From Candidatus Margulisiibacteriota bacterium (GTDB taxonomy: Bacteria; Margulisbacteria; Riflemargulisbacteria; GWF2-39-127): 64,000 bases of DNA. The translations under genes were made by a program, and so were the position numbers. The notes below the pieces were generated by a model. The model saw only the letters and a list, made by a program, of their open reading frames with translations, searched no databases and was not told where the DNA came from. Shown in pieces: positions 9,001-32,209 of this stretch (positions are counted from its first letter, which is position 1; every line of letters starts with the position of its first letter). The DNA lies in contig QKMY01000058.1 in NCBI GenBank assembly GCA_003242895.1, positions 12,739-76,738 of the forward strand, written 5' to 3'.

Positions 9001-12000
9001 CTTCATATCTATATACCATCTTTAATTCAGGTATAGACTGGAAATTGGGCAGTAACGAAATATCTTCTATCGACATATTTAAAGTAACATGTACCCAGGT
9101 CCCTCTGCTAATGATCTTCGGAGACAACTCAAGGGTACCATCCGGCGCACTCGCCATAATATATAGAGTTGTCGAACTTATGCTGACGTTACCTGCCCGA
9201 TCAGCTACTTCTAAATAAAGCGTCCGCATTCCTTCCGCTAATCCAGTAAACTGGAACTGCTGCCCGGTAAACCATTCAGACCAGGCGTTATTGTCAACCT
9301 TAGCCCGGAATGGACGATCTTTTAACTGACAATTATCTGCCGCCGGAGTCCAGCTTACAACAACATTATTCTTGTCATAGTAACCGGACTGCGGCCAATT
9401 AACGGCAAACCCGGTCGGACTGACAGTGTCCACATTTACTGTAACATCTTTTGTAGCCACATGGCCGGCAGCATCAGCCACTTTGATTTGGATAGATACG
9501 ATTCCCTGGACCGCCCCTACATTTATATCACCAATCGTATTCAGCGAAATACCCGATGACCAGGTTAGCCCATTATTCGTACTGAAAAAATAGGTTTTTG
9601 TATTAAGACTGACACTATCCCATGCCGGATCCCATTTTAAAGTAATCGAGCTATCATCATACCAGTTCGGTTCAGGATCAACTCCGTCTCCACCAGAATC
9701 AGAATCCTCACGAACTTCAACGAAATAAAAATTCGGAGTGGTAGTATCTACCCATTGCGAACCTACTGCTGAGGCTTTTATATTACCAGCCTTATCTGCT
9801 ACTGCCACATTAAAAGTAGCAGGTTTATAGATATTCGCCGAAGTATAGACATTCATCGTATTCGTATTATATGGAGTCCAGGATACTGTACCGATAGAAT
9901 TCTTTGCAAAATAAGGAGATGACGTGAACCCACCGACATCCTGCATTGCGGAAGTGGGAATTGTATATACGACAACAGTTTCTTTCCCATAATAGCCGAT
10001 GTCCGGCGTTACATCACCAATAAGGACCGGAGGACAAGGCAGAAAATTGACAGGAAGAAGCAGGTCCGGGCCTAGTATTACCGGGGCGACCATATCCACA
10101 TAAAACCCAGCCTGGGATTCAGTAACGTGTCCGGCCCTATCTCTTGCCTGAACATAGCCCAGGTTTTGATAACTGCCGTCATTGGAATAGGCGACAAAAT
10201 TAACGGCATTGCCATTATATGCAAATCCGCTCCAAGCATTCCATTCTGTATTAGCCGGAATATCGCTCGTTGCCACTCTGTAACGGTAAGCACCACCAGA
10301 TTGATATGGTCCGGAGGCATCTGACATTTCCCAGGAGAAATCTACAGTGTTGTCATCATAATAAGGAAATATGGGAGAGATTCCGTCACTATTGCTATCA
10401 CTATCAGGAGCAATCGCCATATTTAAGACAGGGGCCGTCAGATCGACAATTATGTTTTTTGAAAAAGTCGACGAATTGCCGACACTATCTCGAGCTATTA
10501 CGTATACGGTATGAACCCCTTCGCTTAAAGAACAGGTTAGACTTCCGTTCGCAGATTGTCCCCAAACAGGCGCAGCAGAATCAAGCTGATAAGCAACTGA
10601 GTTAATTCCTGAACCTGAATCACTAATACTCCAGCTAAAACCTACGGTTGTTTGATCAAAATACCCATTCTCCGGTTGATAAATGCTCGACCCGTCAGTA
10701 TCATCGGCAATAGTTATAGAACCGACAGGGCCAGTTGTGTCGATAAGGAATGGCCCTATATGGGTTGAATTTGTACTATAGTTAGCTACCTTGTCTTTTG
10801 ATCTGACATGAAACCATAGATTATTCCCATCAATCAATGAAGCCTGGTAATAAATATTAGCCGCAGCGACACCAGGCGCAGGCTCTGTATTGGAATTAGT
10901 ATCCCAAGAGTATACGTATCCATCTAATCCACTGTGTGCGTCACTTGCCTGGTTCCAATCGATTCTTACTACAGGGTTATTACTCCAGGTACCGGTAGTA
11001 TGTCCAGACGTACATCTAACGTTGGCTACATCAGTTGGGGGGGTTACATCCACCCAGAATGGACCACGATGAGCAGTAGAAGCAGAGATATTTATGGCTT
11101 GATCCTCCGGGCGAATATGCAGCCAATAATTCTGAGCAGATACTAGCGCAGAGGCAGGAAACGTATAATATGTCACGTTACCGAAACCATTATCGCTGCT
11201 CGTTACCAATGTACCGGAAACATTATCGAGCTTATATCTATAGGTATTAATGCCACTACCGCCTTGATCATACGATGTCGTCCAGTACGCACCGATATTT
11301 GGTAACCATGTACCAGTTGCAGGAGCGGTTATTGAAATGTCAGGAGGAATAGTCGTATCGATTTTTAGCAGAAAACTAGTAACATTCCCCCATGTTCCAG
11401 CATTGTTTTTTGCTCGTACATTGATTGAATAGGTACCTTCAGTTTTAGTTATTTGGAATGTTTGCAGAGGGTCACTGCCAGCAGGATCTACGATGATAAT
11501 CCCGTTTGTATCACCAGGGGTAGTGCCATCGGTTGTATAGCTATATCTATCAATTCCAGACACACTAAACGGGGCATTAATTGAAAAGGTAAAAACTCCG
11601 CTCTTATTCGTCCATCCGTTTACTCCATCCGGCATTGATGCGCCTCCGCTGTGGACACAGCTCAAAACCGGCCCTGCAGGAATAGCCGCATCAATCTTAA
11701 ATGGTCCTAAATTAGCTTCCACACCGACATTTCCGACATTATCCACAGCATGCACATGGAAATATGCGGTTGCTGAATTGGGCAGTACAATATTATTTAA
11801 TTGAGTTCCCACCGTATCATAGGTGCCATCAGCCAAAGTACCGGCAGATGCATTCGCGGCATACGAGTATCCGGCTACTCCTGATTGTGTGGCGTAGGTA
11901 ACATTATCATTTGAAGCATTCCACTGCATCGACAACATATTATTAGCTGTCCAGATCCCATTAGCCTGAACACCTGCTGTTCTTATTAATCCGGTAATAT

Positions 12001-13696
12001 TTGAAGGATTGGTCACATCTACCCAGAATGGCCCGCGATGAGCAGTATTGTAAGAAAGGTTGCTGGCGGAATCTTCAGGACGGATATGCAGGTAATAATC
12101 CTGTGCAGTAACGAGTGGAGAAGGAAGAAAAGTATAGCTAGTCACATTACCTACTCCGGAATCAGTGCTGTTTAACACTGTTGCTGAGGCCCTATCAAAT
12201 CTATATCGATAGGTGCTGATATTACTTCCGCCCATATCATTCGACATATTCCAGTATGCATTAACACTTTTCATCCAGGTGCTTGTATTCGGAGCTGTTA
12301 TCATGATATCCGGAGGGTTAGAAATATCTATATTTAATATAAAAGTCCTCGTTTGACTCCAGACGCCCGAAATACTTTTAACTTTTGCTTTAAAAGTATA
12401 AGTCCCTTGCGTTGAATAGGTACTTGGTAATGTGTATGAACTAGCAGCCTGGTCAATGATTGTGTCTGGTTCTGATCCATCCGTTGTATAGCTGATCCCT
12501 GCCATTCCGGAAATATTGCTCGGCGCTGTTATCGTAATCTGATGTCCAGTCAGGTTAGTCCAGACATTACTTACAGTACCCCTGCTGCTCACTATTGCCG
12601 GAGCGGCAGTGGAAGCATCTATCCAGACTTGGCTAAGGCTTGCCTCTGAACTCTCATTGCCTGCATTATCAACAGTCTTTACATATAACGTATATTTTCC
12701 ATCGATCGGACTGGCTTGAGAGGCACTTGTACCTGTAGTCGTACCTGAATAGGTCGTGTTAGTGCCAACCAACCTCCAACGATATTCTTTTAGTCCGCTC
12801 CCGCCAGAATCTGTAGCTGCAGTCCAGGAAAATGAAATCGGAGTTGCATTATTTGTATACCAGGTATTAAGTGTATGGGAAGTGCAGGAGAAACTTCCTG
12901 GTATCGAAGGGGCTATTGAGTCTATATAAAAAGGTCCCACATTAGTTGGAAGCGTTCCGGTATAGGTATGTCCCGCATCATCATTAACTACATTAAAATT
13001 AAGATATTGAGCGGTTGTGCTGGAAGTGTTGTAATCAAAAACATATGTTGGGCTATTTGAGGTATAATTTCCCCAATTCGTATATATATTTAATGGAGCG
13101 GCTCCACTGTCGTTTGTTTGCACTGTTACACGGACACTTTGATACCATGTTGGACCGCTGCCGGTTTTTACGGTTGATTGTGAAACAGAAGAAATAGGGT
13201 TCCAGTCAGCTTTGATTGTTATGGAATCAGAATATTGACTGCCATTAATGTAACAGGTTCCAGTATGAGTATTTGAACCCCCATTTGAGATTGCCCCATT
13301 CGGATTGTTAACATACAGAGAGTATGGGCTTGCATGACCACATCCTCCTGATGAGTAACTGATAGTGTAGCTTGAATATCCTGAGTTGGTAATATATCCG
13401 TTTGTCAAAGGAGCAGAACAGTAGAGACTGGCATAAGCTGAATAATAATCATGATAATCGTAATGTCCCGCAGAACAATATTGACAAGGATACGAGTAAT
13501 ATCCAGTACAATTCCCCATGCCGTCGTAGCCAGTGCAATAGCCGCAGGAGGTCCAAGCATACGAATCACACACCCACCAGTTATGGTATCCAGGCCAGGA
13601 AGCTGAAGATGCCCAGCTACCAGCGGCAGTGATTAGCAACATAATCACCCCGAAAAATAACGCATATAAAAATGTAATATTTTTAATCTTCCTCAA
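1..13696 (-). CDS. Giant secreted Ig-like repeat surface protein (partial, C-terminus lies beyond window start); >=4565 codons in window
   Basis: Manual minus-strand translation in the frame with codon first bases at coordinates = 1 mod 3 runs from TTG 13696 to position 2 without a stop. GAGGA 6 nt upstream; in-frame TGA at 13706-13708; alternative ATG at 13642. N-terminus MRKIKNITFLYALFFGVIMLLITAAGSWASSASW looks like a signal peptide. Recurrent motifs such as LYLWVKDRAGNIS and VTVTDNAGN. Not in the supplied ORF track, presumably because there is no stop inside the window. Confidence 0.85.
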   Translation of the reverse strand, partial: MRKIKNITFLYALFFGVIMLLITAAGSWASSASWPGYHNWWVCDSYAWTSCGYCTGYDGMGNCTGYYSYPCQYCSAGHYDYHDYYSAYASLYCSAPLTNGYITNSGYSSYTISYSSGGCGHASPYSLYVNNPNGAISNGGSNTHTGTCYINGSQYSDSITIKADWNPISSVSQSTVKTGSGPTWYQSVRVTVQTNDSGAAPLNIYTNWGNYTSNSPTYVFDYNTSSTTAQYLNFNVVNDDAGHTYTGTLPTNVGPFYIDSIAPSIPGSFSCTSHTLNTWYTNNATPISFSWTAATDSGGSGLKEYRWRLVGTNTTYSGTTTGTSASQASPIDGKYTLYVKTVDNAGNESSEASLSQVWIDASTAAPAIVSSRGTVSNVWTNLTGHQITITAPSNISGMAGISYTTDGSEPDTIIDQAASSYTLPSTYSTQGTYTFKAKVKSISGVWSQTRTFILNIDISNPPDIMITAPNTSTWMKSVNAYWNMSNDMGGSNISTYRYRFDRASATVLNSTDSGVGNVTSYTFLPSPLVTAQDYYLHIRPEDSASNLSYNTAHRGPFWVDVTNPSNITGLIRTAGVQANGIWTANNMLSMQWNASNDNVTYATQSGVAGYSYAANASAGTLADGTYDTVGTQLNNIVLPNSATAYFHVHAVDNVGNVGVEANLGPFKIDAAIPAGPVLSCVHSGGASMPDGVNGWTNKSGVFTFSINAPFSVSGIDRYSYTTDGTTPGDTNGIIIVDPAGSDPLQTFQITKTEGTYSINVRAKNNAGTWGNVTSFLLKIDTTIPPDISITAPATGTWLPNIGAYWTTSYDQGGSGINTYRYKLDNVSGTLVTSSDNGFGNVTYYTFPASALVSAQNYWLHIRPEDQAINISASTAHRGPFWVDVTPPTDVANVRCTSGHTTGTWSNNPVVRIDWNQASDAHSGLDGYVYSWDTNSNTEPAPGVAAANIYYQASLIDGNNLWFHVRSKDKVANYSTNSTHIGPFLIDTTGPVGSITIADDTDGSSIYQPENGYFDQTTVGFSWSISDSGSGINSVAYQLDSAAPVWGQSANGSLTCSLSEGVHTVYVIARDSVGNSSTFSKNIIVDLTAPVLNMAIAPDSDSNSDGISPIFPYYDDNTVDFSWEMSDASGPYQSGGAYRYRVATSDIPANTEWNAWSGFAYNGNAVNFVAYSNDGSYQNLGYVQARDRAGHVTESQAGFYVDMVAPVILGPDLLLPVNFLPCPPVLIGDVTPDIGYYGKETVVVYTIPTSAMQDVGGFTSSPYFAKNSIGTVSWTPYNTNTMNVYTSANIYKPATFNVAVADKAGNIKASAVGSQWVDTTTPNFYFVEVREDSDSGGDGVDPEPNWYDDSSITLKWDPAWDSVSLNTKTYFFSTNNGLTWSSGISLNTIGDINVGAVQGIVSIQIKVADAAGHVATKDVTVNVDTVSPTGFAVNWPQSGYYDKNNVVVSWTPAADNCQLKDRPFRAKVDNNAWSEWFTGQQFQFTGLAEGMRTLYLEVADRAGNVSISSTTLYIMASAPDGTLELSPKIISRGTWVHVTLNMSIEDISLLPNFQSIPELKMVYRYEDNSSSTPIVLSGSGLNYGLGNYTGEYIYKGDFLFNPGITPNSIEFYLSATNNAGTATKEKLIQSLIFSQGIIGTPTLILSDQDTYSTVWTNDLVVSVTLQGGGAASYWLLTEVNTPPVSPQDSRWSNSNQPLYTFKNNTNGLKTIYSWIMDAMGNISAGTSAAINYDATLPYVVSIDITNMPNISAGTKTVTINLSEELTYLPYAVIPEMWVTFNGGVKTNLNLTKVSPSLYTATLTIDGATPEGAAVFGVRIIDNANNVGSQILSGGSIVIDKSNPVVTSFKVMDRLTGSTLYTNSNRVDLEIKSSDSGSGIGWWLVTENNTFTPQANDSNWSGIVPEVYTLSGDQGAKKLYIWVKDLAQNISARATANNNLAGGPIDVATSIVYDSMYTPPTVDIQLLSIGDIHNVYSSTPVTVTLRMDNETQISTASLWIKLYGQDKVEVPLSSIINSGGNSYSCSGIVPFTVIGTANFEVSVTDVVGNATTRVNKIYYNTGISSINGGEIRINRNVAVPTVTMFDRGTSSSQYTNNQMIGVNIGNDPDAVRWLLSESSTGVAPEANDQNWRIDRPITYTFKNRVNELKSLFVWVKNRNEIISPVSTVATINYDDVIPFAVSVDIDNSPYVNGGVKTITVNLSEALQETPLLSLTVNGISVVLGPAAKVSGTKYTWVFNSSGMNGLGTFGIKITDNASNVGTGILAGGQISIDSTSPNISTFRLFDKLTGSELYTNARVVDLTLSGSSDINSWIITENSAFVPDTADSNWGAKPTSYQLTNVQGTHNVYIWGKDYALNINSNTTTIVYDNLIPEIGIDINHNPLNPITATKNLNVTINVLNIPSGISVTPNLYFNPYQKAAVPVTILGRTGTQFYGSITINSQTANGPAYFSAQVTDNARNYGTSVQWLKYSSIYFSNQLTVNIALITPTFILYDLDSKSSQFTNDFVVGVSYNYDQRSSAWLISETQSTNPSLTDPLWQSTPPVYFVLKNTNNGTRTSYLWTKDAAGNINTVPAIAIINYDNVFPQATSINFERGRYIKAGTSRVTVNISESVSATPDFYLTFMGSKRTITFDYFDGLTLAGFFTVDPNENGTAVINLTITDNALNITNVIPAGLISTINFDTVLPPDPTLGVNTSGLNRPDNSSGYTNTPTINVTISKDPDYFRYVIRELTAVPSENAEDWMPEPVQYRFVYETQGTRNLYLWVKDRAGNISNQYAFNSIVYDIDIPTGSLKLKCQANRSNQITNSLSNIVELAANDTDYYIITENAQFGKPDPLAAVWSAVKPANYDFDPDNIEEGPRYLYCWLMDKSGNINNVVVTTSIYYDPSVPNIGLLLTKSGWISTGDVSVTLDIGENIIVTPDLTYEVGGTTYSVELTPVDITRNAFIATLNVTEAFPNGFLTFHMTITDNAGTVTSDTFSYGTTTLNVDTVIPIIATAAIYDMDKPNSYNLTNDNPFNITMAITESTIKGYYISSNLIADPASIPPGTWLSERPQTYFHSESQGQYGYYIWVKDHAGNISLPRYVSTNFDAIAPTVSVEMARPPGVATFYGIGVVAVTINFNEPIASDSLSINIVCVADNRVNTLTYTVVNSQLVTGSFSVDGSFGDGRQFFRIIAEDLVGNRRVSDKPQGNYLENLDWPNTFVVATGIGFVSLKILDRDNLNNFSSSKYTNERYINMLFDQVALVTHYMITSNIGIKPVLVDITSPNNSESNEFSLNNYYISPSLAPDNQETVVTYNLWVKGASDIHNESTINASILVDLLTPEVTVSLNEGIKKIHAGEYILTVSVTEYIPSNNIKNSKFTYFNAATKILSFTPVGSPDSNNFYNTFRTTINIDSDTPSGQMTLSFNTYDKAGNRVDISTTYDISVVPNPSFNITDTNNGSPVFTNELTVSLNIISDDFADFYIITENATYYTRPERSFTAWRPKAEYTDSYTLSSGDGPKTLAFWVKDSSDPFEANINTKLITRTITLDTMEPTVNIRIGKTLGIGYSTVTFNYNEPILVAPSYFITMTPASGSPNALTRSIDILYSVSSNHTWIGQVEIRPFDVNDTATISGQTIDRAGNLSTSLFGTVTFSIDTLIPDPTFNIIDTDTDSNLYVNDLVVGLQIGNDKDAVKYMVSYTQSTQPTLNSPGWNADKPSNFTLKNVVNENKKLYLWVQDAYKNINKNVVSANIFYDDTPPQTEVKFGYRPYIKEGDYKITLNITQEILALNNTPDFKVQYAGQEALAIDIVPMDSSRYLWVGTINVNAEAPEGVATFSLSVTDNASNVQNKIISGMQTFVIDKTRPSAPGFTAYDPITLIQSYTNQRTIGVSVNIDSSVYMWYLSDQTNVTPDFDAVGWLTQQPTTFTFSDMVISTKNIKLWIQDRAGNISSTGSRSIYLDYDEPTATILISTYPNVKAGILNITLNVSEATLVGVSLNYTLYGYGEVARNVTLNQVSALTYTGTINVTEDFANGAALFNVQLVDYSGNRSNKLSGDIVFQVDTLLPEFSVHSIPDCYLNNTTLNITLNVSEAVSATPSVIFHSDIDAPVIMSCIGLNVWTGSLYISDSLGFDSSASLDVTVTDNAGNRSLAFVKPYTIDKIPADFTVESIKNSPNLAIGSYTLTLNVSEHTINPPQAYFSMSDSSTHSILMSRSINNYWAGDIIISDGYPEGICTINIRVTDYAGNVTSIFGGIVTFNVLITLADPTMNITDRTSGDKIYTNEYSIAVDVGNDNTAVKWMVNETQSVKPEWNAAGWQSSKPNLYTLNAGPEGHRKVYLWIQDSARNINKTIVSQNIILDTIKPVSQINMTKRDFVSIGAVSLTLSIQEDTPATPELKLVYADGSTLNFLLNGVSPNIYTATFNVFQNDPQGVASFYLCVTDNASNVQNTLVGDKQFVLDTVASTPSFVIFDYDTGDTNYTHDLLPRVIINSDADVVSWILSEVQPTRPSPTSNYWRNEKPYEYTFRNTDFGIKTVYLWVKDSAGNINDMAVTRSISYFRSTSVNIEVTAIKIFNQTGSTYSYIRP
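100..7960 (-). repeat. Tandem coding repeat array inside the giant gene: ~13 diverged copies of a ~200-220 aa two-domain module (period ~600-680 nt)
   Basis: Motif [LF]W[VI][KQ]D-x-AGNI recurs at approx. 135, 740, 1925, 2555, 3180, 3805, 4485, 5095, 5405, 6020, 6640, 7240, 7930, interleaved with a second motif (V-T/D-D-N-A-x-N). Copies are conserved at protein level but diverged at DNA level. Confidence 0.7.
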
Positions 13697-13727
13697 TAGA
13701 TATCCTCAATTATTCTATACGTAATAC

Positions 13728-15068
13728 CTATTTTGCACATCTGAACCCTGTACAGCCACAAGGACTCGAAGGAGCTATTCCGGCCATAATGGAAAAAACC
13801 CCTGATTGTTCATTCATTTTGTGTTCTCCGCCTCTCAGCAAAGCGGCAGGGAAGCATTGTCCTTCCGCTTGATTAGAAGCTGATTTAACTTCACTAACAC
13901 TATCGTTACCATAGGAAACTCCCGTATTAGGAAAAAATCCGGGATCATACTGACCTTTACCGATTCTTATCATTTTCAGGGTTTCTACTATCAATTTCTC
14001 TATATCCTTAAATTTTGGATCAATTTCTAATGTAAATGCTTTCATATCAGGCTGAAATCTACTCGATATCTTTCTGTTTTCATCGAGGTAATAATTCTTC
14101 TTTAATTCTTCCCAGATTTCTTCAGATTTAAACGAGGTTTTTTTTTCAATCTCATCAAAGGCATTTTTTTGTACTGGCCCCTGATAAAACATGCCATTAC
14201 CCTGCATCCAGTCGCTTACCCATTCATTTACATTCCCCGCCATGCCAACACAGCCAAAGGTAGAAATTTCCTGAGCGGCTATAGTGTCCCAGGAGGCCGG
14301 AAGTTCCCCTCCCCGCCCTTTGCTTAACGCCGTGCCTGCTGCGCCGTCCTGCCATTCGCCGTTTGTCACCAGCCGCTTCCCTGCGTTAACTGCTGCCCTG
14401 CGAGCGACAAACCAGGTCATTCCGGTCGAACACTCAGCCCTTTGAGAAAAAGCCATCCAATATGGTGGCACATTCTGGCCATTACCCGCCAAAATCCCAA
14501 AATCATTATGATTATGATCATGTTGGCTGTCTTTTTTATTTTCGTTCCGCTGAATAAAATATGTCCCTTTTACGTCAGCACCTTTATAATCTGCACCCAC
14601 ATCAATTATCCGGCAGGAATACTTATCTATCCAAACGGTACCTACCTTCACCTGTATATCATCTTGCCCGCATCGGTATGCCGGCATATCCGGATTGTAT
14701 TTGTTATTAATATGAGTTCCTGGCGGCAACTGATCCAGTTTGCCATGAAAAAAACCGACATTATTTCCTGTTACTATCCAGGAAACAGGATCTCCAGGAT
14801 CAATTGTGCCCCGGCTGGCATCTATGACTTTATTATATTTCCAGGCCCTTTCTTCATCATCCCACCCTACCCATAGAGCATTAAACATTAGATAACTCTG
14901 TCCATTATTGCTAAAATCCGGCCATTGATATACCGGAACAGAGTTAGCATAATAGTTGGGTAACCGGTTATCAACCTGCTGAACCGCGGCTTCGCCGACA
15001 ACTGAAAATACCATTAAAAAAAAGCATAGTGAAAGTATAATTCTGATCTTGTGATAAAATTGCATCAT
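13728..15068 (-). CDS. FGE-sulfatase/SUMF1-family domain protein (formylglycine-generating-enzyme-like; GldK/GldJ-like possibility), secreted
   Basis: 446 aa with N-terminal signal peptide. Motifs AGKRLVTNGEWQDGAAGT and MAGNVNEWVSDW resemble the FGE signatures RLPTEAEW..ARGG and GNVWEW. ~140-aa C-terminal extension ending PCGCTGFRCAK. 31 bp upstream of the giant gene, same strand. Confidence 0.65.
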   Translation of the reverse strand: MMQFYHKIRIILSLCFFLMVFSVVGEAAVQQVDNRLPNYYANSVPVYQWPDFSNNGQSYLMFNALWVGWDDEERAWKYNKVIDASRGTIDPGDPVSWIVTGNNVGFFHGKLDQLPPGTHINNKYNPDMPAYRCGQDDIQVKVGTVWIDKYSCRIIDVGADYKGADVKGTYFIQRNENKKDSQHDHNHNDFGILAGNGQNVPPYWMAFSQRAECSTGMTWFVARRAAVNAGKRLVTNGEWQDGAAGTALSKGRGGELPASWDTIAAQEISTFGCVGMAGNVNEWVSDWMQGNGMFYQGPVQKNAFDEIEKKTSFKSEEIWEELKKNYYLDENRKISSRFQPDMKAFTLEIDPKFKDIEKLIVETLKMIRIGKGQYDPGFFPNTGVSYGNDSVSEVKSASNQAEGQCFPAALLRGGEHKMNEQSGVFSIMAGIAPSSPCGCTGFRCAK

Positions 15069-16900: not shown

Positions 16901-19561
16901 TTATTTACTGTTCTCGATACTAGCTATAACTTTTTCAGCATCAACAGAATCGCTTATCAATAGAGAACCTGGGACCCCTCCGGGCAGAGCATTACGAATG
17001 AACGCATCAATATCCTCCTGGCTTGCTTTACCGATATGGCCAAAACTCTTTTTGATTAACGTAACTATACCTTGCTTGCTTAGGTGTTTAGCAACTCCGA
17101 CAACTTGTTCCTGTGCATCTATTACTTCAATATTAGTAATCGTTTTGCTCTTAAGCTCAATTACCTGATTGACCATATCACGCATACCTTCTGTCAGAAT
17201 GCTCCTAATGTGCTCACTGTCAGTGTTATCAATATGAACAATCGCTGCTGCTGCTATATAGGGATCAACAACGGAAAAGATCTGACGGAGTGCGGTGTCG
17301 TCCAGCAGCAACAGATCTTCGAATAACAGGATCATATCTCTGATCTCTTCAAGTACATCCGGGAACCTTTCAGCCATAACCTTAGTAAGCTCAGTCTTGT
17401 CGTTGTCCCTTATCTGATTAAGAAGCCCAAGGACAACTTCTCTTCCACCAACAAGGCTTGATAGTTTCTCCCTTATACGCGTGTCCAGAAACTCTATCTC
17501 TTCTTTACTATATTGGTTACTATAAACCAAATATGAAAGTACTTCTGCTTGCTCTAAATGGCATAACTGAGACAGAATAATATTAGCCATAGACGGCGAT
17601 AAATAAGATAAAATTATTGATATTTTTTCTAGATCGATTTGTCCCTGTTCATATTCTGACTTGAGCAAATTCCTTAGCTTAAAAATATTCCCTTCATTAA
17701 CAAATGCAAAAAATCCGACAAATGAATTCGATGTCAAATCAATGGACGCTGCCGCTCCAATCGGTCCCGAACCAGCATCTTTCGATCCCTCGCTTGCTCC
17801 ATATCCAGCCCCAAGAGTTAGCGCGCTTGACGAAGCTGCTCCAGATTTATCAGCCATTTTAGTCACACCATCGGAAACTACCGATAAAGATTTCCTGAAT
17901 AAAACGCCTATCAATAAAATAACTACAATGATTGCAGCAGTATTAGCTATAGAAACATAATGGTTGATTCCTAATGCCAGCGACTTTTTAGATTGTGAAT
18001 CCGAAAAATCCCCCGTTTGTGAGACACTCTTGTATTCTGCCCTAAACTTATCAACTATATTTTGTACGTCGAGAACAGTGTCCTTTCGAACTCTGTAAGC
18101 TATTTCTTCATTTTTCGATAGCCTGTCTTCCACCAACTTTAAATTTCGATTAAGTTCTTCCTGGATATTTTGATTATTATTAAAGAATTTATCTGCGACA
18201 GAAGACATAGATTCGTCACTAATTTTATCTTTAGTTATGAACAAATTTTTATTCATTTTTACCGGAAAATCAAAAAAACCATTCACAATACCAACGATTT
18301 TCTTCTCTTTATTACTATCGATATCAGTTGGCACAGTAATATATACATTTACATCTTTAATAAAATATTTGTCATATAAATTGGTCGATTGAATAGGAAC
18401 ACCAGGCAATAATGATTTTTCCTGAATTGGGGAAAACAGATCAATACCGATATCCAGCTTTAATAAAACAACGATATCTTTGATATTCAACTTTTTTCTG
18501 ATAACATTTTGTAACCTGGTTTCCAATGTCTGTTCCAGTTCTGTTTGTTTTCCAATAAAAGCACGGTCCTGTTGTCTGCCCTCATGCTGAAGAAATTCTC
18601 TCACCAGTTTGTTATCAGGATCGATTTTCAGGACGTTATTCCAGTCTTGTCTTGCCTTATCAAAATTATCCAGCAAAAAATTAGCGGACCCTCTTCTCAT
18701 TAACGCCGCTACATTTTTAGGGTCTACATCCAAAACTTCATTGCATTCTTTAACAGCATCATAAAACTTCCACTCGTTTATATATTTTAAGGCCCTTGCT
18801 AATTTCTCTTCAATTATTTCATCAAAATCATTCTGTTTGATAATATTGTGAACATCGTTTATTAAATCCTCAGATTTTTTTGTATTCAAGTATTTACTAA
18901 CGCTATCATCCAATAATTTATTCTTGATAAAAACATTAGCCTCTCTCTTCGGAAATTTAAATTCGTTCTTGAATTTAGCGATTTTGTCACTAAATCTATC
19001 TGTATTTGACAGCATTTCAACCATTTTTCCCCGAGACAAATAGATCCTATCTTCTAACGGAGAAGATCCAGAGGCCAGATTGGCGCTACCGTTATAATAA
19101 TTTTTTGGAAAAACCAACAATTTATTGATTATTTCAGCGGCTTCTTTTTCCTCGATGAATGACTTTGGATAAAATTTCTTATTGTCGGGAACACCAATTA
19201 ATTTCAGATTAACAGCTCTGCATATAGCCGGAGCTGCACTATAGTCTTCAGGCACATCAACAAAAAAGTTGGAATACTTATAGTTATCATCTTTATCTGT
19301 TAAAGAAACGATAAATGTAATGAATTGGCTTTTATTGATTAAACGGTCTGAATTAAATAAATTACCTTTATTAGGGATGAGGAGCTTGTTTGTAACAAAA
19401 TAATATATTTCTTTGGCATAAGGATCTTTTTCAGATATGTCTTTGAGAACAAACGTTTCCGATTTTTCGGCCTTCGTTACAACAACATCACCTATGGTAG
19501 CTTGAGCCATTATGAATATCAACGCTATTACAGCGATAATTGTCCGTTTTAATAACTTCAA
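16901..19561 (-). CDS. Bitopic membrane protein: periplasmic TPR-containing domain, one TM helix, Gly/Ala/Ser linker, cytoplasmic FliG-like (FliG_M + FliG_C / MgtE_N-like) domain
   Basis: 886 aa; TTG start with AAGGGGGA RBS. TPR-like segment YDAVKECNEVLDVDPKNVAALMRRGSANFLL..NNVLKIDPDN. TM helix SIANTAAIIVVILLIGVLF. C-terminal ILSYLSPSMANIILSQLCHLEQAEVL and MILLFEDLLLLDDTALRQIF resemble the FliG middle and C-terminal signatures. Confidence 0.6.
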   Translation of the reverse strand: MKLLKRTIIAVIALIFIMAQATIGDVVVTKAEKSETFVLKDISEKDPYAKEIYYFVTNKLLIPNKGNLFNSDRLINKSQFITFIVSLTDKDDNYKYSNFFVDVPEDYSAAPAICRAVNLKLIGVPDNKKFYPKSFIEEKEAAEIINKLLVFPKNYYNGSANLASGSSPLEDRIYLSRGKMVEMLSNTDRFSDKIAKFKNEFKFPKREANVFIKNKLLDDSVSKYLNTKKSEDLINDVHNIIKQNDFDEIIEEKLARALKYINEWKFYDAVKECNEVLDVDPKNVAALMRRGSANFLLDNFDKARQDWNNVLKIDPDNKLVREFLQHEGRQQDRAFIGKQTELEQTLETRLQNVIRKKLNIKDIVVLLKLDIGIDLFSPIQEKSLLPGVPIQSTNLYDKYFIKDVNVYITVPTDIDSNKEKKIVGIVNGFFDFPVKMNKNLFITKDKISDESMSSVADKFFNNNQNIQEELNRNLKLVEDRLSKNEEIAYRVRKDTVLDVQNIVDKFRAEYKSVSQTGDFSDSQSKKSLALGINHYVSIANTAAIIVVILLIGVLFRKSLSVVSDGVTKMADKSGAASSSALTLGAGYGASEGSKDAGSGPIGAAASIDLTSNSFVGFFAFVNEGNIFKLRNLLKSEYEQGQIDLEKISIILSYLSPSMANIILSQLCHLEQAEVLSYLVYSNQYSKEEIEFLDTRIREKLSSLVGGREVVLGLLNQIRDNDKTELTKVMAERFPDVLEEIRDMILLFEDLLLLDDTALRQIFSVVDPYIAAAAIVHIDNTDSEHIRSILTEGMRDMVNQVIELKSKTITNIEVIDAQEQVVGVAKHLSKQGIVTLIKKSFGHIGKASQEDIDAFIRNALPGGVPGSLLISDSVDAEKVIASIENSK

Positions 19562-23510: not shown

Positions 23511-23546
23511 AAAAGATATAAAAAGGGGTTTGATTAATCAAACCCC
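23511..23546 (-). terminator. Rho-independent terminator candidate downstream of the 776-aa PorV-like/SLH gene
   Basis: Hairpin GGGGTTTGA-TTAA-TCAAACCCC (23525-23546) followed on the minus strand by TTTTTATATCTTTTT. Confidence 0.5.
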
Positions 23547-26145: not shown

Positions 26146-26181
26146 AAAAACAAAAAGGCAGGTAAAACTACCTGCCTTTTT
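26146..26181. terminator. Bidirectional rho-independent terminator candidate
   Basis: Perfect hairpin GGCAGGTA-AAAC-TACCTGCC (26157-26176) flanked by A-run on one side and T-run on the other; immediately downstream of the minus-strand 1268-aa gene stop. Confidence 0.55.
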
Positions 26182-26205: not shown

Positions 26206-29200
26206 TTATTTCAAAACTGCTATCTTAACTTTTTCTTTTGTTTTATGCTTGCCGTCATCTATTATGAGATATCCGAGATAGACACCATTCGAAACAACTT
26301 CACCGAATTTATTTCTACCATTCCAAATTATCTCATTATATCCAGCTTGAGCTCCCGGTTCGTCTTTCGATGCTTCCATATTAAATAATAACTCACCACT
26401 AATTGAGTAAACCCTTAGTTCCGTATCCGCCGGCTGACTTAGGTAATAACTAATATAAGCACTTCCCTTGTTAGGATTAAAAGGATTCGGCGCAGATAAA
26501 AGTTTAGTTACCGTTTCCCCTGACACCAGGAAACTAACCTGAACTACTATGCTCGACGTCGATAAATCATTCGCCTGGACAAGAATAGAATATCTTCCCG
26601 GAGCAAGAGTTATAGCAGGATTGAAGACATATGATGCAGTAGCCACAATTGATGCTGTTGGGAATGCTACTATTCCTGATACAGTTACAATATCGTTCTT
26701 CCAATCTTGGATTAGCACATTGTAAGTTGTCAGGAAAACATCATCAACAAAACCAACCTTCACTTCTCGAACTTCATTCGAGATATAATCCCCAGTAACT
26801 ACCACTTTATCGTTGACATAAAGATCTGAAGCTGATCGAGGACTGTCTACTATTGAGGTTATTACAAATGCCTGCGAATTATTAACAAGTTCATTACCGA
26901 AAATGTCTTTGATATTACGAATCTCTATCTTTGCAATACCAGTATTCATTAAATTGCCTATTTCTGTTTCTGCCACCCATACGGCATTCTTAACTCCGGA
27001 GGATTCCAATCTAACAGCAAACTGCTCGGTTACTCCTAAGATATCAACACACGTTATAATTGGAAGTGAAGTACTATCCACTCCTGTATCGTCAGAAACA
27101 TTTATAGTTAGAGTCATAGTATTGCCGAAGGGGACCCTTCGATCCAATTTATCAAAACTCGTAGCAAATGCATTAATAGTCGGGGCCCTTAGCTCCGCTG
27201 CATATACTATAGATGCGAAGCTAATTACCGTCCCATTGTCACTACTAACGTACTGAGCAGTATGCCCAGCTAAATCAACTATACACGAAGTATCAAAATA
27301 AAGGTTTCCTGTACCAACTGCTAAGCTATAATCAATCGGAATAACTCCTCTTATTATATTATTAACAATATTCACGCTAGCAGCGTTAGCATATATCTTC
27401 TGATGGTCTTTTGACATCTCTAGCCAAATCTTAGGTTCAGAGTCCGCAGATATCACAACTATGCCTTTTTCGATAATAGGGATTACAAAGTGAATGCCGT
27501 TAGGACCAAGCTTCACAATGGAACCCGTTACGATTTCTTCCTCGAAAGCAGTCTTGGAAATAGATACCTTTTCTTTAGTAGATTTTGCTTTCGCAACTTT
27601 ACTAAAGATGCTCCTAAATGTATCCTTCTTCGTAGCTACTGATAAGGCACTAATACCTGTGTTACTTGCAGCAATATCATCTGATGTGAAAATCAGGGTA
27701 TCGGCACTGAATTGAGGTAACATCGGCGAAGTTTGATCTGTTTCAAAAGAGATATTATCAACAGTAAACCTATCTTTGCCCGCATTATAAACTTTAAATT
27801 GAAAAGCAAGTATATTTTTAATTAAATCTTCAATCGGAACTATATTTCCAAAATCCCCATTCAATCTAAAATCACTATAGGAAAGAACAACTCGATTAAA
27901 CTGACCATTAATCCAAGTATCCGGGTCCATATGTTCTACAAAGAATGCTTCATAGTTGTTACCGAGCGTTAAATCATCATTTGCAAGAGCTACCGATACC
28001 TGACACATACTATCGTAATTTCCACTAACATATAAAGTTACAGTATCGTATTGGCTAAGATCAACTGCAACATTGCTGTTAGCAAATGGCCTGCTTACCA
28101 TCATCCAATTCGCGTCATCAGTACTATTGTATGCGATATTTAGCCCTTTCGACCCATCAACACCATTATTGGATATCCAAGCATTTATTGTAGCTTCAGA
28201 AGAAGGAGAATCCGCTCCGGACCACCAGTATTCACCGTAAGATTCCATGTCAAATGATTGCATAAAGTTAAAGGTTGTTGGGATCGGCGGAGTGTTAGCA
28301 TCATAATCAAATGACAGCTCATCGAAATATATGTTTCCAGCCCCACTACCATTAACTCGGAACTGAATTGTTTTTGCTTGAGCTAAGAGGTCTTTAACTG
28401 AAACAAGATTACCAAACAGCCCTTGAGGCATGAAGCTGCTTAGCGGGATCGATATTCTAGTAAAAGTAGAATTATTAACAGAATCCGTCACTACTTGACT
28501 TAAATCAACGAAATAGTTGTTATAACTAGTAACATCATCATTAGCGATGATCAATTTCAACCGACCGACTTCTTCTTTGTTGCCCTTTACATAGAGGTGC
28601 ATCACATTATACATCGAAAGGTCGACGGTTGGAGTTACCGCAGTTCCTAGAGCTCGACCAATAATTGACCATGAACTGTCAGACGTATTGGAATAATTAA
28701 TCTGGAATGACTTCATTGTCCCGTCGGCACCTTCATAGACAATATTATGATTGATAGTCGCGCCATAGGCTGCTGTATCCCACCACCAGTTGCTTCTGTC
28801 TTTCTCAAAATCGTATTTGCCAGCAAAATTCAAGTTCAGGGTCGGCACATACGGTGGATTCTGCGCAACATCGAACCCTAAGTTATCGACGATAAAGGAG
28901 CCTGAAACTTGCCCTTCTATCCTGAACTGTATTGCTTTTATATTACTTAATATTGTTCCAAAATCTATGGCGGTTTCCATACTATTCATCGGCCTAAAGT
29001 CACTGAACGGGATCACGACTTGATTATAACCATTGGCATTATAGCTGTCTTTATCGATACAATCATAAATATTTGCTCCATAGTTGTTGTATGAGGTAAT
29101 CGTATCGTTCGCCAGTACCATCAAGATATTCTTGAACTGCTCGACGTCACCCTTTAGCGACACCGTTATTGATTTGTAATTATTCATTGCGACAATGTCG

Positions 29201-30012
29201 ACATTTGGGTTACTACCATTTATGTCTGAGTTAGTAACTTGCCACCAATATTCGGTTTTATCCTCGATGTCGCTATACAAAGTAACATCTTTCAAATTAA
29301 TACCAACAATTTTCCAGGCATCTTTACTTGCGAGATTGTAATCTACAGGCATCACAAAAGCAGGAATATACGGAGGATTTAGAGTTAAATTAAAATTAAC
29401 TTCATCAACAGTAAAAGTACCTGAACCGGCACCTGTGTTTTTAAATTGTACTGCATTGGTATTTTTCAATAAATTAACAAAATCTGATATTCTACTTGCA
29501 CCTGACGATGCTCTAAATGCATCAAAAGGTATTATTATCCTATTGAATAAGTTCGGATTGTAATTGCTCGGATTTATAAATGGATTGATTTTCGCTTCAT
29601 AGTTACTACCTAGTGCATCATTTGCTAATACAAAAGATAGTTGCTGTAGACAATTAATGTCACCTTTAACATAAAAAGAAACCGACTCGTAAAGAGTCAT
29701 ATCGATCGTGCTACTCAGATTCTTGCCAACTATCGACCATGAATCATCAGAAGGATTCGTATACGTTATCTCCAGTGCTTTCTGAGTTGCTTCGGCACCA
29801 CCAGCTACTATCGAGTGATTGATTGTTGCACCGGAGGAGGATGCATCCCACCAACTATCACGAGACTCAAAATTCAGAATACCGTTAAATACTTCGACAA
29901 TACTAGCTTGAATTGCAATAAGCCCGTAATTCGCAGCAAAAACCTCGCTATTACAGGTAATAACGAGAAACAAGGCTAATAACAGTAATGACTTTATTTT
30001 TTTGCCAATCAC
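26206..30012 (-). CDS. Large secreted protein: signal peptide, N-terminal ANYGLIAIQA motif, four ~190-aa carbohydrate-binding-module-like repeats, Ig-like region, C-terminal FlgD-Ig / T9SS-CTD-like beta-sandwich
   Basis: 1268 aa; GTG start with GAGGTG RBS. Repeats each contain WW..(S/A)..ATIN and ANDxxxSYNNY-type motifs. C-terminus NPFNPNKGSAYISYYLSQPADTELRVYSISGELL...GYNEIIWNGRNKFGEVVSNGVYLGYLII. Overlaps the upstream gene by 4 bp (GTGA). Confidence 0.6.
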   Translation of the reverse strand: MIGKKIKSLLLLALFLVITCNSEVFAANYGLIAIQASIVEVFNGILNFESRDSWWDASSSGATINHSIVAGGAEATQKALEITYTNPSDDSWSIVGKNLSSTIDMTLYESVSFYVKGDINCLQQLSFVLANDALGSNYEAKINPFINPSNYNPNLFNRIIIPFDAFRASSGASRISDFVNLLKNTNAVQFKNTGAGSGTFTVDEVNFNLTLNPPYIPAFVMPVDYNLASKDAWKIVGINLKDVTLYSDIEDKTEYWWQVTNSDINGSNPNVDIVAMNNYKSITVSLKGDVEQFKNILMVLANDTITSYNNYGANIYDCIDKDSYNANGYNQVVIPFSDFRPMNSMETAIDFGTILSNIKAIQFRIEGQVSGSFIVDNLGFDVAQNPPYVPTLNLNFAGKYDFEKDRSNWWWDTAAYGATINHNIVYEGADGTMKSFQINYSNTSDSSWSIIGRALGTAVTPTVDLSMYNVMHLYVKGNKEEVGRLKLIIANDDVTSYNNYFVDLSQVVTDSVNNSTFTRISIPLSSFMPQGLFGNLVSVKDLLAQAKTIQFRVNGSGAGNIYFDELSFDYDANTPPIPTTFNFMQSFDMESYGEYWWSGADSPSSEATINAWISNNGVDGSKGLNIAYNSTDDANWMMVSRPFANSNVAVDLSQYDTVTLYVSGNYDSMCQVSVALANDDLTLGNNYEAFFVEHMDPDTWINGQFNRVVLSYSDFRLNGDFGNIVPIEDLIKNILAFQFKVYNAGKDRFTVDNISFETDQTSPMLPQFSADTLIFTSDDIAASNTGISALSVATKKDTFRSIFSKVAKAKSTKEKVSISKTAFEEEIVTGSIVKLGPNGIHFVIPIIEKGIVVISADSEPKIWLEMSKDHQKIYANAASVNIVNNIIRGVIPIDYSLAVGTGNLYFDTSCIVDLAGHTAQYVSSDNGTVISFASIVYAAELRAPTINAFATSFDKLDRRVPFGNTMTLTINVSDDTGVDSTSLPIITCVDILGVTEQFAVRLESSGVKNAVWVAETEIGNLMNTGIAKIEIRNIKDIFGNELVNNSQAFVITSIVDSPRSASDLYVNDKVVVTGDYISNEVREVKVGFVDDVFLTTYNVLIQDWKNDIVTVSGIVAFPTASIVATASYVFNPAITLAPGRYSILVQANDLSTSSIVVQVSFLVSGETVTKLLSAPNPFNPNKGSAYISYYLSQPADTELRVYSISGELLFNMEASKDEPGAQAGYNEIIWNGRNKFGEVVSNGVYLGYLIIDDGKHKTKEKVKIAVLK

Positions 30013-30827
30013 AAATTCACCTCAAAGACTTTAGTTTCTGACTTAATTTTACTAGAAAGATACTCATATTGAGCGTTAATCTCCGCCAAATATTTTCCGT
30101 GATTAAAATCCTCGATGTTCGGTAACGTCATCTGGATTATCCTGTCGGCCTCAGGGAAAACAGGCCAATCTTTCGCAATTAAAAAAGTATCTTTTCCCTG
30201 ATCATCAAGCAGGTACTTCCCGTCTGCCACACTCTTTAACCGTAAATATATTTCTGGTCTCATATGAACATTCCCATAATTTTTTAAAATAATTGTCGTA
30301 CTGAGAGAAACATTGGTTGATGCTAAACCAGCTGCTTGCGTTGCCGCTATATTAAAACTAGTAACTCGTACATCCGTTTTTTTATTTTCTTCACTCATCA
30401 TATATACTGGAACCCTTATCTCGCTAACATAAGGAGACCCTGGCGCCCGTTCGGTAAATGAAAGGTAGATCTTTTTCTCCCCAACAAAATCTGAAGGAGC
30501 ACTTATAACAATAGTTTTTTTGACTGTCTTATTCGGAGAAACCTCAAGATCTACAAAAGAGTCGATTTGAACCCAAGATACTTCTTCTTCGGTGAATACG
30601 ACCGATTGGTTTTGATCAAAGCGCCATGCAGTGATTCCATTATTCACGATAACATCGTCATCACAGTTATTTTTAATATAAAAACTAGTAGTCGTTGTCT
30701 CCCCAGGCAGGACTTCGACTTCTATCATCGAGGGATGGACACTTAATGCGTGAAGAGCAGAGGTGCTACACAAAAGAAAGATAGCACTAACTACTAAACA
30801 GGTACTTTTTGCACTAATGACTTTCAT
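30009..30827 (-). CDS. Secreted two-domain beta-sandwich protein, possible PapD-like periplasmic chaperone fold
   Basis: 272 aa with signal peptide; N-terminal LSVHPSMIEVEVLPGETTTTSFYIKNN resembles a chaperone N-domain strand pattern. Assignment is weak. Confidence 0.35.
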   Translation of the reverse strand: MKVISAKSTCLVVSAIFLLCSTSALHALSVHPSMIEVEVLPGETTTTSFYIKNNCDDDVIVNNGITAWRFDQNQSVVFTEEEVSWVQIDSFVDLEVSPNKTVKKTIVISAPSDFVGEKKIYLSFTERAPGSPYVSEIRVPVYMMSEENKKTDVRVTSFNIAATQAAGLASTNVSLSTTIILKNYGNVHMRPEIYLRLKSVADGKYLLDDQGKDTFLIAKDWPVFPEADRIIQMTLPNIEDFNHGKYLAEINAQYEYLSSKIKSETKVFEVNL

Positions 30828-30959
30828 TAACTACTCCCTATATTTGCTATCAGTTTTTATTCAAACTTATTAAGTCCCCCGACAACTTAATAAGTTTGAT
30901 TTTAAAGGTTTCAGGTATTCTCCGGCAAGAACCGGAGAATACCTGGCTAAAAATACCTA

Positions 30960-31634
30960 TTATTGTGTTTGTAAACTATATTGTAAAACAGCTGTCCAGG
31001 TAGCCGGAGCTGTTGTTGCTGTAAAACCGAGTCGATACCAAGCTTTTATTGTGGTTTCTGTTAGCTGTTGTTCACCAGATGCAATTTGACGTGCAGAATC
31101 AGCAAGTGTAGCTGAACCTTTAGTCCACGTTGTCCCATCTGCCTTCCAGCATGGATCTTGTTGTGCTGCAACGCCAACTTTGTACCATGGCCAGTATTGA
31201 CTATCCTTTACATTTAACCATGCAGCCGCAGCGGTGTTTGTTGGTAGAGTTGCGCTAACGGTTACACCAAGAGGTTGCTGTGATCCGGAATAATCAACTC
31301 CCATATTTCCAAGTGAGTAATCAACCAGACCATCGATTTTAACGTTTTCATCAGCATTTGTTGTAGCCGCAACGTGACTCGCATTCATAACGAATAGCTG
31401 CCATGATGATTTGTTTGTCGAATAAGCAATATTGGTTGCTGTTGTAACAATTATTGTAGTCGCATTGACTGTAAGGGCATTTAATGTAGGCGCCTGTCCC
31501 CCTGAAACAGTATTTACTTTCAATATTGTGGTATCGGCAACTGTTGCCTGAATACCAATCAAACCATAGTTTGCAGCGAAGGCTGCTGAACTCATAAGCA
31601 TTAAAGCTAAAACCATAAATAGTATTTTTTTCAT
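30960..31634 (-). CDS. Secreted Thr/Ala-rich protein (candidate fibre/pilin-like subunit) with mature N-terminus ANYGLIGIQATV
   Basis: 224 aa; ATG with AAAGGTGGG RBS; signal peptide MKKILFMVLALMLMSSAAFA, then the same motif as the mature N-terminus of the 1268-aa protein. Confidence 0.5.
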   Translation of the reverse strand: MKKILFMVLALMLMSSAAFAANYGLIGIQATVADTTILKVNTVSGGQAPTLNALTVNATTIIVTTATNIAYSTNKSSWQLFVMNASHVAATTNADENVKIDGLVDYSLGNMGVDYSGSQQPLGVTVSATLPTNTAAAAWLNVKDSQYWPWYKVGVAAQQDPCWKADGTTWTKGSATLADSARQIASGEQQLTETTIKAWYRLGFTATTAPATWTAVLQYSLQTQ

Positions 31635-32209
31635 GTACTATTCCCACCTTTCAATATAATTATTTTAATAATTAAAATATATTTTCATACATCACAGTCG
31701 CGATTATCTAAAAACGTCAAGAATCTATTTCTCCAGCTAGCCCCTCCTTTCACATACCTTATCAAAATCAAGTAACAAAATACCATTACTATTAATATAT
31801 CGTATCGTCATCAAAATGATTTCATTACATTTGCATTTTTTATTGCCAGTAATTATAGCAAAAACAAAACATTAAATCAAATACATATTTTATATTTATA
31901 ATATTGCCATTGTTTACTTATATTTTTTAGCTATACTTATGATTGTTTTCTTTAACAAAAACATTTTATTACTTGTTAATTCTCAAGGATTAATAAAAGC
32001 ATGAGGATACAACCATATTAATTTAGCGATACATATAATATATTTTTTTTTCAAAGGTAGCAATGACTAAATATTAATCTCTCCTTTCATTACTTACTAT
32101 ACCCGTGCATTATGTAGTTCAAACATAGATTTACATAACATTTTCATGTCGAATGTTGCGTTTCTGTGAAATATCCTTCATTTATAAATAATTTGACAGT
32201 TATTTCAAT

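Follow-up and report, generated by a model that had tools for sequence, protein, structure and literature searches.

The operon considered here lies in a 64-kb window, the whole stretch of DNA analyzed, from a Candidatus Margulisiibacteriota metagenome-assembled genome (MAG; contig QKMY01000058.1). It comprises four co-directional genes on the minus strand, which encode a small secreted protein (224 aa), a chaperone-like protein (272 aa), a large secreted protein (1268 aa), and an outer-membrane barrel protein of the PorV/PorQ family (776 aa) (Table 1). The two secreted proteins begin with nearly the same strand-like sequence after their predicted signal peptides, and their genes flank that of the chaperone-like protein. 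The large gene's GTG start shares bases with the TGA stop of the chaperone-like gene (TTGTGATT), as the initial annotation of this region had described, and is preceded by a GAGGTG Shine-Dalgarno sequence. One terminator-like hairpin is found after the large gene and another after the barrel gene, and the barrel gene also has an upstream region of its own.

Table 1. Features of the four-gene operon, in window coordinates; a slash marks predicted signal-peptide cleavage.
Feature	Position	Strand	Basis
Small secreted protein, 224 aa, putative major subunit	30960..31634	minus	open reading frame (ORF)
PapD/WxLIP-superfamily two-Ig-domain chaperone-like protein, 272 aa	30009..30827	minus	ORF
Large secreted protein, 1268 aa, GTG start	26206..30012	minus	ORF
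PorV/PorQ-family outer-membrane barrel protein, 776 aa	23580..25910	minus	ORF and NF033709
Signal peptide of small protein, aa 1-20, cleavage AFA/A	31575..31634	minus	
Shared N-terminal strand, small protein, ANYGLIGIQATV, mature residues 1-12	31539..31574	minus	
Shared N-terminal strand, large protein, ANYGLIAIQASI, mature residues 1-12 after VFA/A	29899..29934	minus	
Four tandem CBM11/CIA30-like modules, about 175 aa each	27718..29898	minus	PF08547
Conserved Ig-like middle region of large protein	26494..27717	minus	colinearity with L001 and L040 orthologues
Type-A-like (type IX secretion) / FlgD_ig-like C-terminal domain, last 95 aa	26209..26493	minus	
Candidate sigma-70 promoter, TTGATT, 17-nt spacer, TGcTATAAT	31852..31880	minus	consensus scan, pattern match only
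Two long stem-loops after small gene	30861..30945 (15 bp at 30912-30945; 16 bp at 30861-30899)	minus	
Intrinsic-terminator-like hairpin and T-run after large gene	26156..26173	minus	
Terminator of barrel gene	23525-23546	minus	

The 224-aa ORF reads MKKILFMVLALMLMSSAAFA/ANYGLIGIQATV, while the 1268-aa ORF reads MIGKKIKSLLLLALFLVITCNSEVFA/ANYGLIAIQASI. Over the AANYGLIxIQA stretch, 10/11 residues are identical compared to only 23/33 nucleotides, and different codons are used at 7 of the 10 identical residues. A BLASTP alignment of the two mature proteins is confined to residues 1-14. In all instances (8/8, from five related loci), an [AV]-x-A site directly precedes the motif, and thus, the motif is the mature N-terminus rather than part of the hydrophobic core of a signal peptide. 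The shared mature motif proposed in the initial annotation is therefore confirmed, with its positions corrected by only a few bases, and its placement inside an uncleaved signal peptide, which had been named as a possible refutation, is not what we find. The motif has hydrophobic residues at alternating positions (6, 8, 10, and 12), as in a β-strand with one apolar face. Pro-rich linkers follow the strand in several related loci (LLPPA, AIPAF, EDTEPP, DDTMPPE, APAPTPAP), which argues that it is a detached N-terminal extension and not part of the next domain.

We compared the window with related loci (denoted by L numbers), for which the contexts span at most about 20 kb each. In six loci, a small protein and a larger protein with a common N-terminal strand flank a chaperone-like gene, and the set of small protein, chaperone, strand-bearing protein, and PorV/PorQ-family barrel recurs in three divergent lineages. 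In L001, a syntenic contig that represents the second homologue cluster, the small protein reads AFA/ANFGLIPLQATI and the large protein VQA/ASWGLIPIQATL. The corresponding small and large sequences are DDWALVKLAATV and ADWALIRLSGMV in L039/L040 (syntenic Margulisbacteria, with a PorV-SLH gene next), TVTDTSVVSATV and TVINDTSLISTDV in L042, DTLTDTSDVSAVVA and EKLTESVEVSVCVV in L045, and ..HDMSVTLTAQATL and ..PDMTVHLVAEAVV in L047, with a PorV-like barrel gene next in both L045 and L047. Two further loci provide only the large sequence: ANYGIIKILAEI in L037, where the small gene is cut by the contig end, and ADWGMIMLEATV in L038, where it is not on the contig. The order small gene, chaperone, gene for a strand-bearing protein with a C-terminal domain (CTD), and PorV-like barrel is found independently in L045 and L047.

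Across these loci, the strand begins ANYGLI.. in both window proteins, and elsewhere DDWALV.. in the small protein pairs with ADWALI.. in the large, TVTDTS.. with TVINDTS.., DTLTDTS.. with EKLTESV.., and HDMSVTL.. with PDMTVHL... When six small and six large strands are compared all against all, the summed score of the true within-locus pairing exceeds those of all other permutations (719/719; 720 in total), and the large protein of the same locus is the best match for 5/6 small proteins. Judging from these alignments, the strand has changed completely between lineages while its two copies within a locus stayed alike, as is expected if both bind one co-evolving acceptor site. Chance similarity, recent partial duplication, or gene conversion could be invoked for so short a match, and nothing beyond its length favors them. 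The codons differ in every small/large pair compared, including those of four other loci, and the pairing recurs in six loci. We consider chance and recent duplication refuted by these two observations, leaving them a negligible probability, and the earlier suggestion that selection rather than recent duplication conserves the motif is supported by the sequences.

The motif itself appears to be confined to loci of this type. One genome per species (185,579 species, 596 Gb) was searched with a degenerate DNA pattern for A-[NS]-[YF]-G-L-I-x-h-Q-A, which gave 30 matches, compared to roughly 50 expected by chance from an information-content estimate; none of these (0/30) lies behind a signal peptide. 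The source MAG is apparently absent from the GTDB species-genome collection, and variants such as ASWGLIPIQA would escape the patterns. In JGI metagenomes, among them the sample from which the organism came, the only in-frame matches to a stricter pattern are the two copies on the window's own 95-kb contig, and three further matches are out of frame and attributable to chance. A relaxed six-frame search of the window finds no third copy. The search for other carriers, which the initial annotation had suggested, thus finds none behind a signal peptide among the 185,579 genomes. We therefore reject the motif as a widespread or general sorting signal, as there is no carrier outside such loci in the genome, metagenome, or window scans.

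A narrower possibility is that the motif is an N-terminal export or processing signal that is read by outer-membrane or maturation machinery rather than a structural strand. In both secreted proteins, its position is exactly that of the mature N-terminus, and among the window proteins scanned, we identified no route of export across the outer membrane. Nonetheless, the three scans above find no other carrier, the sequence of the strand is lineage-specific instead of universal, and a paralogous subunit in L001 does without the motif. We regard this explanation as improbable. The best reading of the motif, from its sequence pattern and pairing, is that it acts in trans as a donor strand.

The product of the gene between the two motif-bearing genes has the same sequence as hypothetical protein DKM50_10490 (locus tag) from a Candidatus Margulisiibacteriota MAG. 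A word-indexed search among 5.8 billion proteins finds only 2 clusters and a profile search there only 10, while an exhaustive HMMER search from two orthologues recovers 79 proteins, nearly all of 245-285 aa and matching over their full length. The window protein has no Pfam match at all, including PapD_N (PF00345) and PapD_C (PF02753) at E ≤ 1. Among 73 aligned family members, there are weak matches to WxLIP_PGBD (DUF916, PF06030; 14 members, all at E ≥ 1.2e-5), WxLIP_HBD (DUF3324; 4 members), and PapD_N (1/73, E = 0.003). The family profile matches the Enterococcus faecium WxLIP (EfmWxLIP1; 9i25_C, 9i1y_A) over both domains with E = 4.5e-10 and CsuC, an archaic chaperone-usher chaperone, with E = 5.7e-4; PDB entry 9i25 is a WxLIP bound to a long WxL protein. 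An AlphaFold2 model built with the family alignment (pLDDT 92.7) consists of two β-sandwich domains with the signal peptide (aa 1-27) as the sole helix, and a Foldseek search with this model ranks WxLIP first (6.6e-11) and CsuC next (4e-9). IMG had independently named one family member "P pilus assembly chaperone PapD," the sole functional label among the members.

By its model, the 272-aa protein has the two immunoglobulin (Ig)-like domains of a periplasmic chaperone in the PapD arrangement, which bears out the earlier description of the middle gene as a chaperone-like, two-domain β-sandwich. On sequence grounds, it belongs to the PapD/WxLIP superfamily and to neither curated family. It ends in β-strands at residue 272 and has neither a C-terminal transmembrane helix nor a typical lipobox. 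Strands F1 and G1 are putatively placed at aa 117-127 and 134-145, respectively. A conserved R-x-x-x-P-x-Y strand of the family aligns with a segment of CsuC that we take to be its G1 donor strand, and the basic residue conserved in the putative G1 strand (R in the profile, R138 in the window protein) aligns with QMR of CsuC. In PapD, the conserved cleft residues are Arg8 and Lys112.

The small protein is rich in Thr, Ala, and Asn and ends in a conserved C-terminal strand, ...TWTAVLQYSLQTQ. Its family has only 2 homologue clusters among the 5.8 billion proteins in the word-indexed search and no match in Pfam, NCBIfam, or PDB profile searches. Across all loci, the small proteins have a conserved strand at the C-terminus, G-x-Y-[ST]-x-x-L-x-[FY]-x-L, and over the C-terminal 44 columns, hhalign relates the Margulisbacteria subunits to the small proteins of distant loci with a probability of 75% (E = 2.5e-5). 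In L001, an additional 187-aa paralogue of the small subunit (11571-12134), encoded between the chaperone and large genes, keeps this C-terminal strand (..YSAVLQYQLSMQ) and may serve as a minor or adaptor subunit.

Downstream of the small gene, a 132-nt spacer folds as a pair of stem-loops with 15 and 16 bp (−48.1 kcal/mol, z = −7.5 versus shuffles). A strong hairpin occurs at the same place in L001, L037 (with a U-run), L039, and L042, giving five loci with the window. An Rfam scan of the operon, including the stem-loops and the upstream region, finds no family at threshold. Stem-loops after a subunit gene are the usual arrangement for a major structural subunit that is produced in excess of its assembly factors. 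With strong stem-loops following it in five loci, the small gene looks like a major-subunit gene, in agreement with the initial annotation, and the stem-loops probably act as an attenuator or mRNA stabilizer that gives an excess of the small subunit. Upstream of the small gene is an unusually long, AT-rich intergenic region (31635-32209, ~575 nt); the candidate promoter in it, a pattern match only, lies ~215 nt before the start codon and would give a 5' untranslated region of ~215 nt.

The large protein consists of the N-terminal strand, four modules of the CBM11/CIA30 type, a conserved Ig-like region, and a 95-aa C-terminal domain. The carbohydrate-binding modules (CBMs) noted in the initial annotation are recovered as a match to CIA30 (PF08547, E = 9.3e-10), with Pro-rich linkers between modules at about aa 213, 386, 574, and 762. 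Module number varies from 1 to 4 among orthologues (four in the window, two in L001, one in L040), and CBM_11 is faint in L039/L040. The Ig-like middle region aligns colinearly with the orthologues in L001 and L040 (30-33% identity) and has only weak Ig-type Pfam matches. The C-terminal domain (PNPFNP...RVYSISGELL...WNGRN..GVYLGYLII...KIAVLK) carries the PNPF.P, IYsisG, W[ND]G, and GvY.y motifs of the T9SS (type IX secretion system) type-A CTDs and of FlgD_ig domains (FlgD_ig, E = 2.4e-4). It is homologous to the CTD of L045 (BLASTP, 9e-10), which passes TIGR04183 at 29.6 bits (cutoff 23); L046 scores 26.8 bits and L040 22 bits, and for the orthologues in L001 and L040, there are matches to the PorU model at its C-terminal end (E = 1e-10 and 1e-11). 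We detect no subunit domain in the large protein, as its BLASTP alignment with the small protein does not extend beyond the strand.

Next to the large gene, the 776-aa protein has a barrel at aa 25-301 to which SLH, FlgD_ig, SLH, and additional C-terminal domains are fused (SLH, E = 2.9e-23; FlgD_ig, 29.5 bits). It matches the PorV_fam model NF033709 at 121.1 bits (cutoff 90), as do its orthologues in L039 (125.8 bits) and L045 (131.7 bits), and L045 and L047, both distant loci, have a PorV-like gene in the equivalent place. PorV and PorQ of the T9SS keep PorU and PorZ, whose C-terminal domains are not removed, attached to the cell surface (PMC5562754), and the C-terminus of the large protein is thus best read as its cell-anchoring end. 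In L042, a dockerin replaces this domain and the next gene encodes a cohesin-PEP-CTERM protein, which is a swap of one anchoring pair (CTD/barrel) for another (dockerin/cohesin). L045 additionally contains a second pair (11696-14768, JGI Ga0366833_1002349), in which a CBM11/CIA30 protein with a T9SS-type CTD is followed by another PorV-like barrel. This suggests that pairs of CTD proteins and PorV-like barrels are a general anchoring unit in that organism.

The initial annotation had instead placed the large protein at the distal tip of a fiber, with its CBM-like modules presented at the end of a stalk of small subunits. The four modules are in keeping with this, as the tip adhesins of chaperone-usher pili (FimH, PapG, and CsuE) are large multi-domain proteins. 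However, those adhesins have a grooved pilin domain and no N-terminal extension, whereas the large protein has the strand and no detectable subunit domain. It also carries a C-terminal cell-anchoring module of the T9SS type beside a PorV/PorQ-family barrel gene, and its equivalents in L045 and L047 are only 237-370 aa and lack adhesin modules. A tip adhesin is therefore doubtful, and we assign it only a small likelihood. Because of the T9SS-type CTD beside the barrel gene and the dockerin/cohesin pair in one locus, the large protein is more likely a cell-proximal anchor or nucleator. The CBM-like modules hint, by sequence, at glycan binding at the cell surface.

A more serious competitor comes from the WxL clusters of small WxL, large WxL, and WxLIP (DUF916/DUF3324) proteins, also known as Csc clusters. 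A strand insertion between WxLIP and WxL partners has been predicted (PMC10599100), which implies that the superfamily works by strand complementation. By analogy, the operon may form a hetero-complex without any polymer, in which the strand docks each client on the two-Ig-domain protein by edge-strand pairing with a donated hairpin, giving stable 1:1 surface complexes. WxLIP is the closest solved relative of the chaperone by both sequence and Foldseek, the WxL clusters follow the same gene logic of one small and one large client with one WxLIP, and the WxLIP strand is predicted to insert beside the WxL N-terminus (PMC10599100). Versions anchored by a transmembrane helix also exist in L043, a locus that resembles those of the candidate phyla radiation (CPR). 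On the other hand, the 272-aa protein has neither a transmembrane helix nor a lipid anchor and so cannot tether clients, the stem-loops that follow the small gene speak for an unequal stoichiometry, and the large protein already has an anchoring module of its own. The WxL domain (PF13731) has no match at E ≤ 1 in the small or large protein of the window and none in the small proteins of related loci. Two further differences from WxL clusters are that their clients share a C-terminal domain rather than a 12-residue N-terminal strand and that the window organism is diderm. We find a complex of this kind plausible but less probable than the reading preferred below, and it is the strongest of the competing explanations.

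Three of the related loci display further architectures. The distant locus L041 (5393-12792, JGI Ga0366824_1006564) contains a pair of chaperone-like genes, two genes for small subunits, and one for a 1317-aa protein with a C-terminal domain that resembles the small subunits, and it adjoins Wza/Wzz polysaccharide-export genes. In L046 (668-4099, ENA ERZ23498930), a gene directly upstream of the chaperone-like gene encodes a 1143-aa glycosidase of the GH2 family with a C-terminal subunit-like domain (..TYSTKIILEFFIP), and enzymes may thus be displayed through the same system. The large proteins of L041 and L046 resemble those of WxL clusters in having this C-terminal domain. L043 (1322-10024, GCA_964459595.1) encodes two WxLIP-like proteins of 336 and 339 aa with C-terminal transmembrane helices in a context of ComEA/ComEC and SecE/NusG genes. 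The C-termini of their partner proteins are ..YATVIRFLATPSF (271 aa) and ..YYFNKIKYTAVAKF (483 aa), and neither partner matches WxL in Pfam. This locus looks like a monoderm-style version of the system.

Our preferred reading is that the operon encodes a four-part surface assembly of a diderm Margulisbacteria cell, with donor-strand subunits and an anchored large protein, to which we give a probability of roughly 45%. It builds on what the loci support directly: the motif, its cleavage context, the within-locus co-variation, the chaperone fold, the barrel family, the CTD homology, and the recurrence of the gene set. The 224-aa protein would be the structural subunit, made in excess, and the 272-aa protein a periplasmic chaperone that keeps it assembly-competent, probably by lending its G1 β-strand. 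The shared motif would be inserted by both secreted proteins into one acceptor site, most likely a groove of the small subunit, such that each subunit has its fold completed by the N-terminal strand of its neighbor in a head-to-tail donor-strand polymer. Bearing the strand without a subunit domain, the large protein could only donate and would cap the groove end, giving the polymer a strand on its cell-proximal side for nucleation or anchoring, in the manner of TapA with TasA. The barrel would hold the C-terminal domain of the large protein at the outer membrane, and its own SLH domains would tie it to the peptidoglycan or cell wall. From the fiber model of the initial annotation, this retains the chaperone, the CBM modules, and the donor strand as the best reading of the motif, and gives up the sorting motif and the tip adhesin.

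Several observations weigh against this assembly. AlphaFold2 gives an unusable model of the small protein (pLDDT 29 from a 2-sequence alignment), and an acceptor groove is not seen. As the fold of the small subunit is not predicted, we infer donor-strand polymerization, and likewise the acceptor site, the topology, and how the outer membrane is crossed. Neither an usher nor another obvious export pore for folded subunits is present among the proteins scanned: usher (PF00577) is absent from the four operon proteins and ten further window ORFs, including both remaining ORFs of more than 800 aa, and none is seen in the contexts of the related loci. We know of no PorV-type barrel that exports folded proteins. 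T9SS core genes (SprA/Sov, PorK/L/M/N, and the PorU sortase) are not in view at the loci, where no search aimed at them was made, and to our knowledge they do not occur outside the Fibrobacteres-Chlorobi-Bacteroidetes (FCB) group. The C-terminal domain of the window protein scores 16.1 bits against TIGR04183, below the cutoff of 23, and the barrel gene may adjoin the large gene within Margulisbacteria simply because gene order is conserved, as all flanking genes are also syntenic. Finally, the best-conserved residue in the first strand of the chaperone family is Glu36 rather than the Arg8 of PapD, and the additional small paralogue of L001 has a different N-terminal strand, GTYAELDVTVNV, in place of the motif.

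When compared to chaperone-usher pili (CsuC of the Csu type, EcpB/CfaA/SafB/PapD), the operon has in common the chaperone fold, and the N-terminus of its small protein carries an amphipathic strand. In contrast, the operon lacks an usher in the proteins scanned and a PapD_N/PapD_C match, its subunit family is unrelated by sequence, its large protein has the strand and no pilin domain, and a PorV/PorQ-type barrel with a T9SS-type CTD is found in place of the usher. A functional analogy, and only that, is TasA/TapA of Bacillus subtilis, in which a major subunit and a low-abundance accessory protein share an N-terminal donor strand, much as the window pair shares its N-terminal strand. TapA, with an N-terminus that resembles the donor strand of TasA, starts the filament or anchors it (PMC9674648, PMC10151520). 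Nevertheless, neither the folds nor the sequences are related to the window proteins, and no operon protein has a Pfam or NCBIfam match to the TasA/camelysin fold or the SipW peptidase. In B. subtilis, tapA and tasA are separated by a gene for the SipW signal peptidase rather than for a chaperone, and the Bacillus system is monoderm and has no outer-membrane component, whereas the window organism is diderm. PorU-PorV and PorZ-PorQ provide the precedent for a retained type-A CTD protein held by a PorV/PorQ-family barrel (PMC5562754), with a barrel gene adjoining that of the CTD protein in the window. The differences are that the window organism is outside Bacteroidota, its barrel is fused to SLH domains, and its CTD is below the TIGR04183 threshold. 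By these analogies, the system would work like a donor-strand fiber that lacks some defining features of each of chaperone-usher pili, WxL clusters, and TasA, and there is a moderate chance that it is a distinct, undescribed class of surface fiber. In the literature, we found no description of PapD-like chaperones combined with PorV-type barrels, nor of pili in Margulisbacteria.

Elsewhere in the window, a minus-strand frame of at least 4568 codons (2-13705) runs off the window start. It has a signal-peptide-like N-terminus followed by a stretch rich in Cys, Tyr, Gly, and Trp (..WVCDSYAWTSCGYCTGYDGMGNCTGYYSYPCQYC..), lacks the ANYGLI motif, and probably encodes a giant surface protein. An 886-aa protein (16901-19561, minus strand) combines a weak SLH match and tetratricopeptide repeats with FliG middle and C-terminal domains (FliG_C, E = 1.5e-12), an odd architecture for a flagellar-switch-type domain. 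A 448-aa protein (49452-50798, plus strand) has an N-terminal SLH domain (E = 3.6e-7) and is possibly a tether of the OmpM type in the outer membrane, as would suit a diderm envelope held by SLH domains.

Margulisbacteria are a sister lineage of Cyanobacteria, and we know of no cultured free-living representative. More tentatively than the assembly itself, we propose that the operon exemplifies an usher-independent class of donor-strand surface fiber in uncultivated diderms, with an orphan subunit, a chaperone that bridges WxLIP and PapD, and a strand-mimicking anchor on a PorV/PorQ-type barrel. The gene set of small subunit, chaperone, strand-bearing CTD protein, and PorV-like barrel is directly searchable in metagenomes. 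If the proposal is true, it would link three systems that are usually treated separately, namely chaperone-usher pili of Proteobacteria, WxL/WxLIP complexes of Firmicutes, and the CTD/PorV-PorQ anchoring of the Bacteroidota T9SS. PapD-type chaperones would then be able to work without an usher, the TasA/TapA principle of an anchor that copies the subunit donor strand would extend to diderm bacteria, and CTD-barrel anchoring would operate outside Bacteroidota, independently of a full T9SS. For Margulisbacteria, the operon would represent the first candidate surface appendage.

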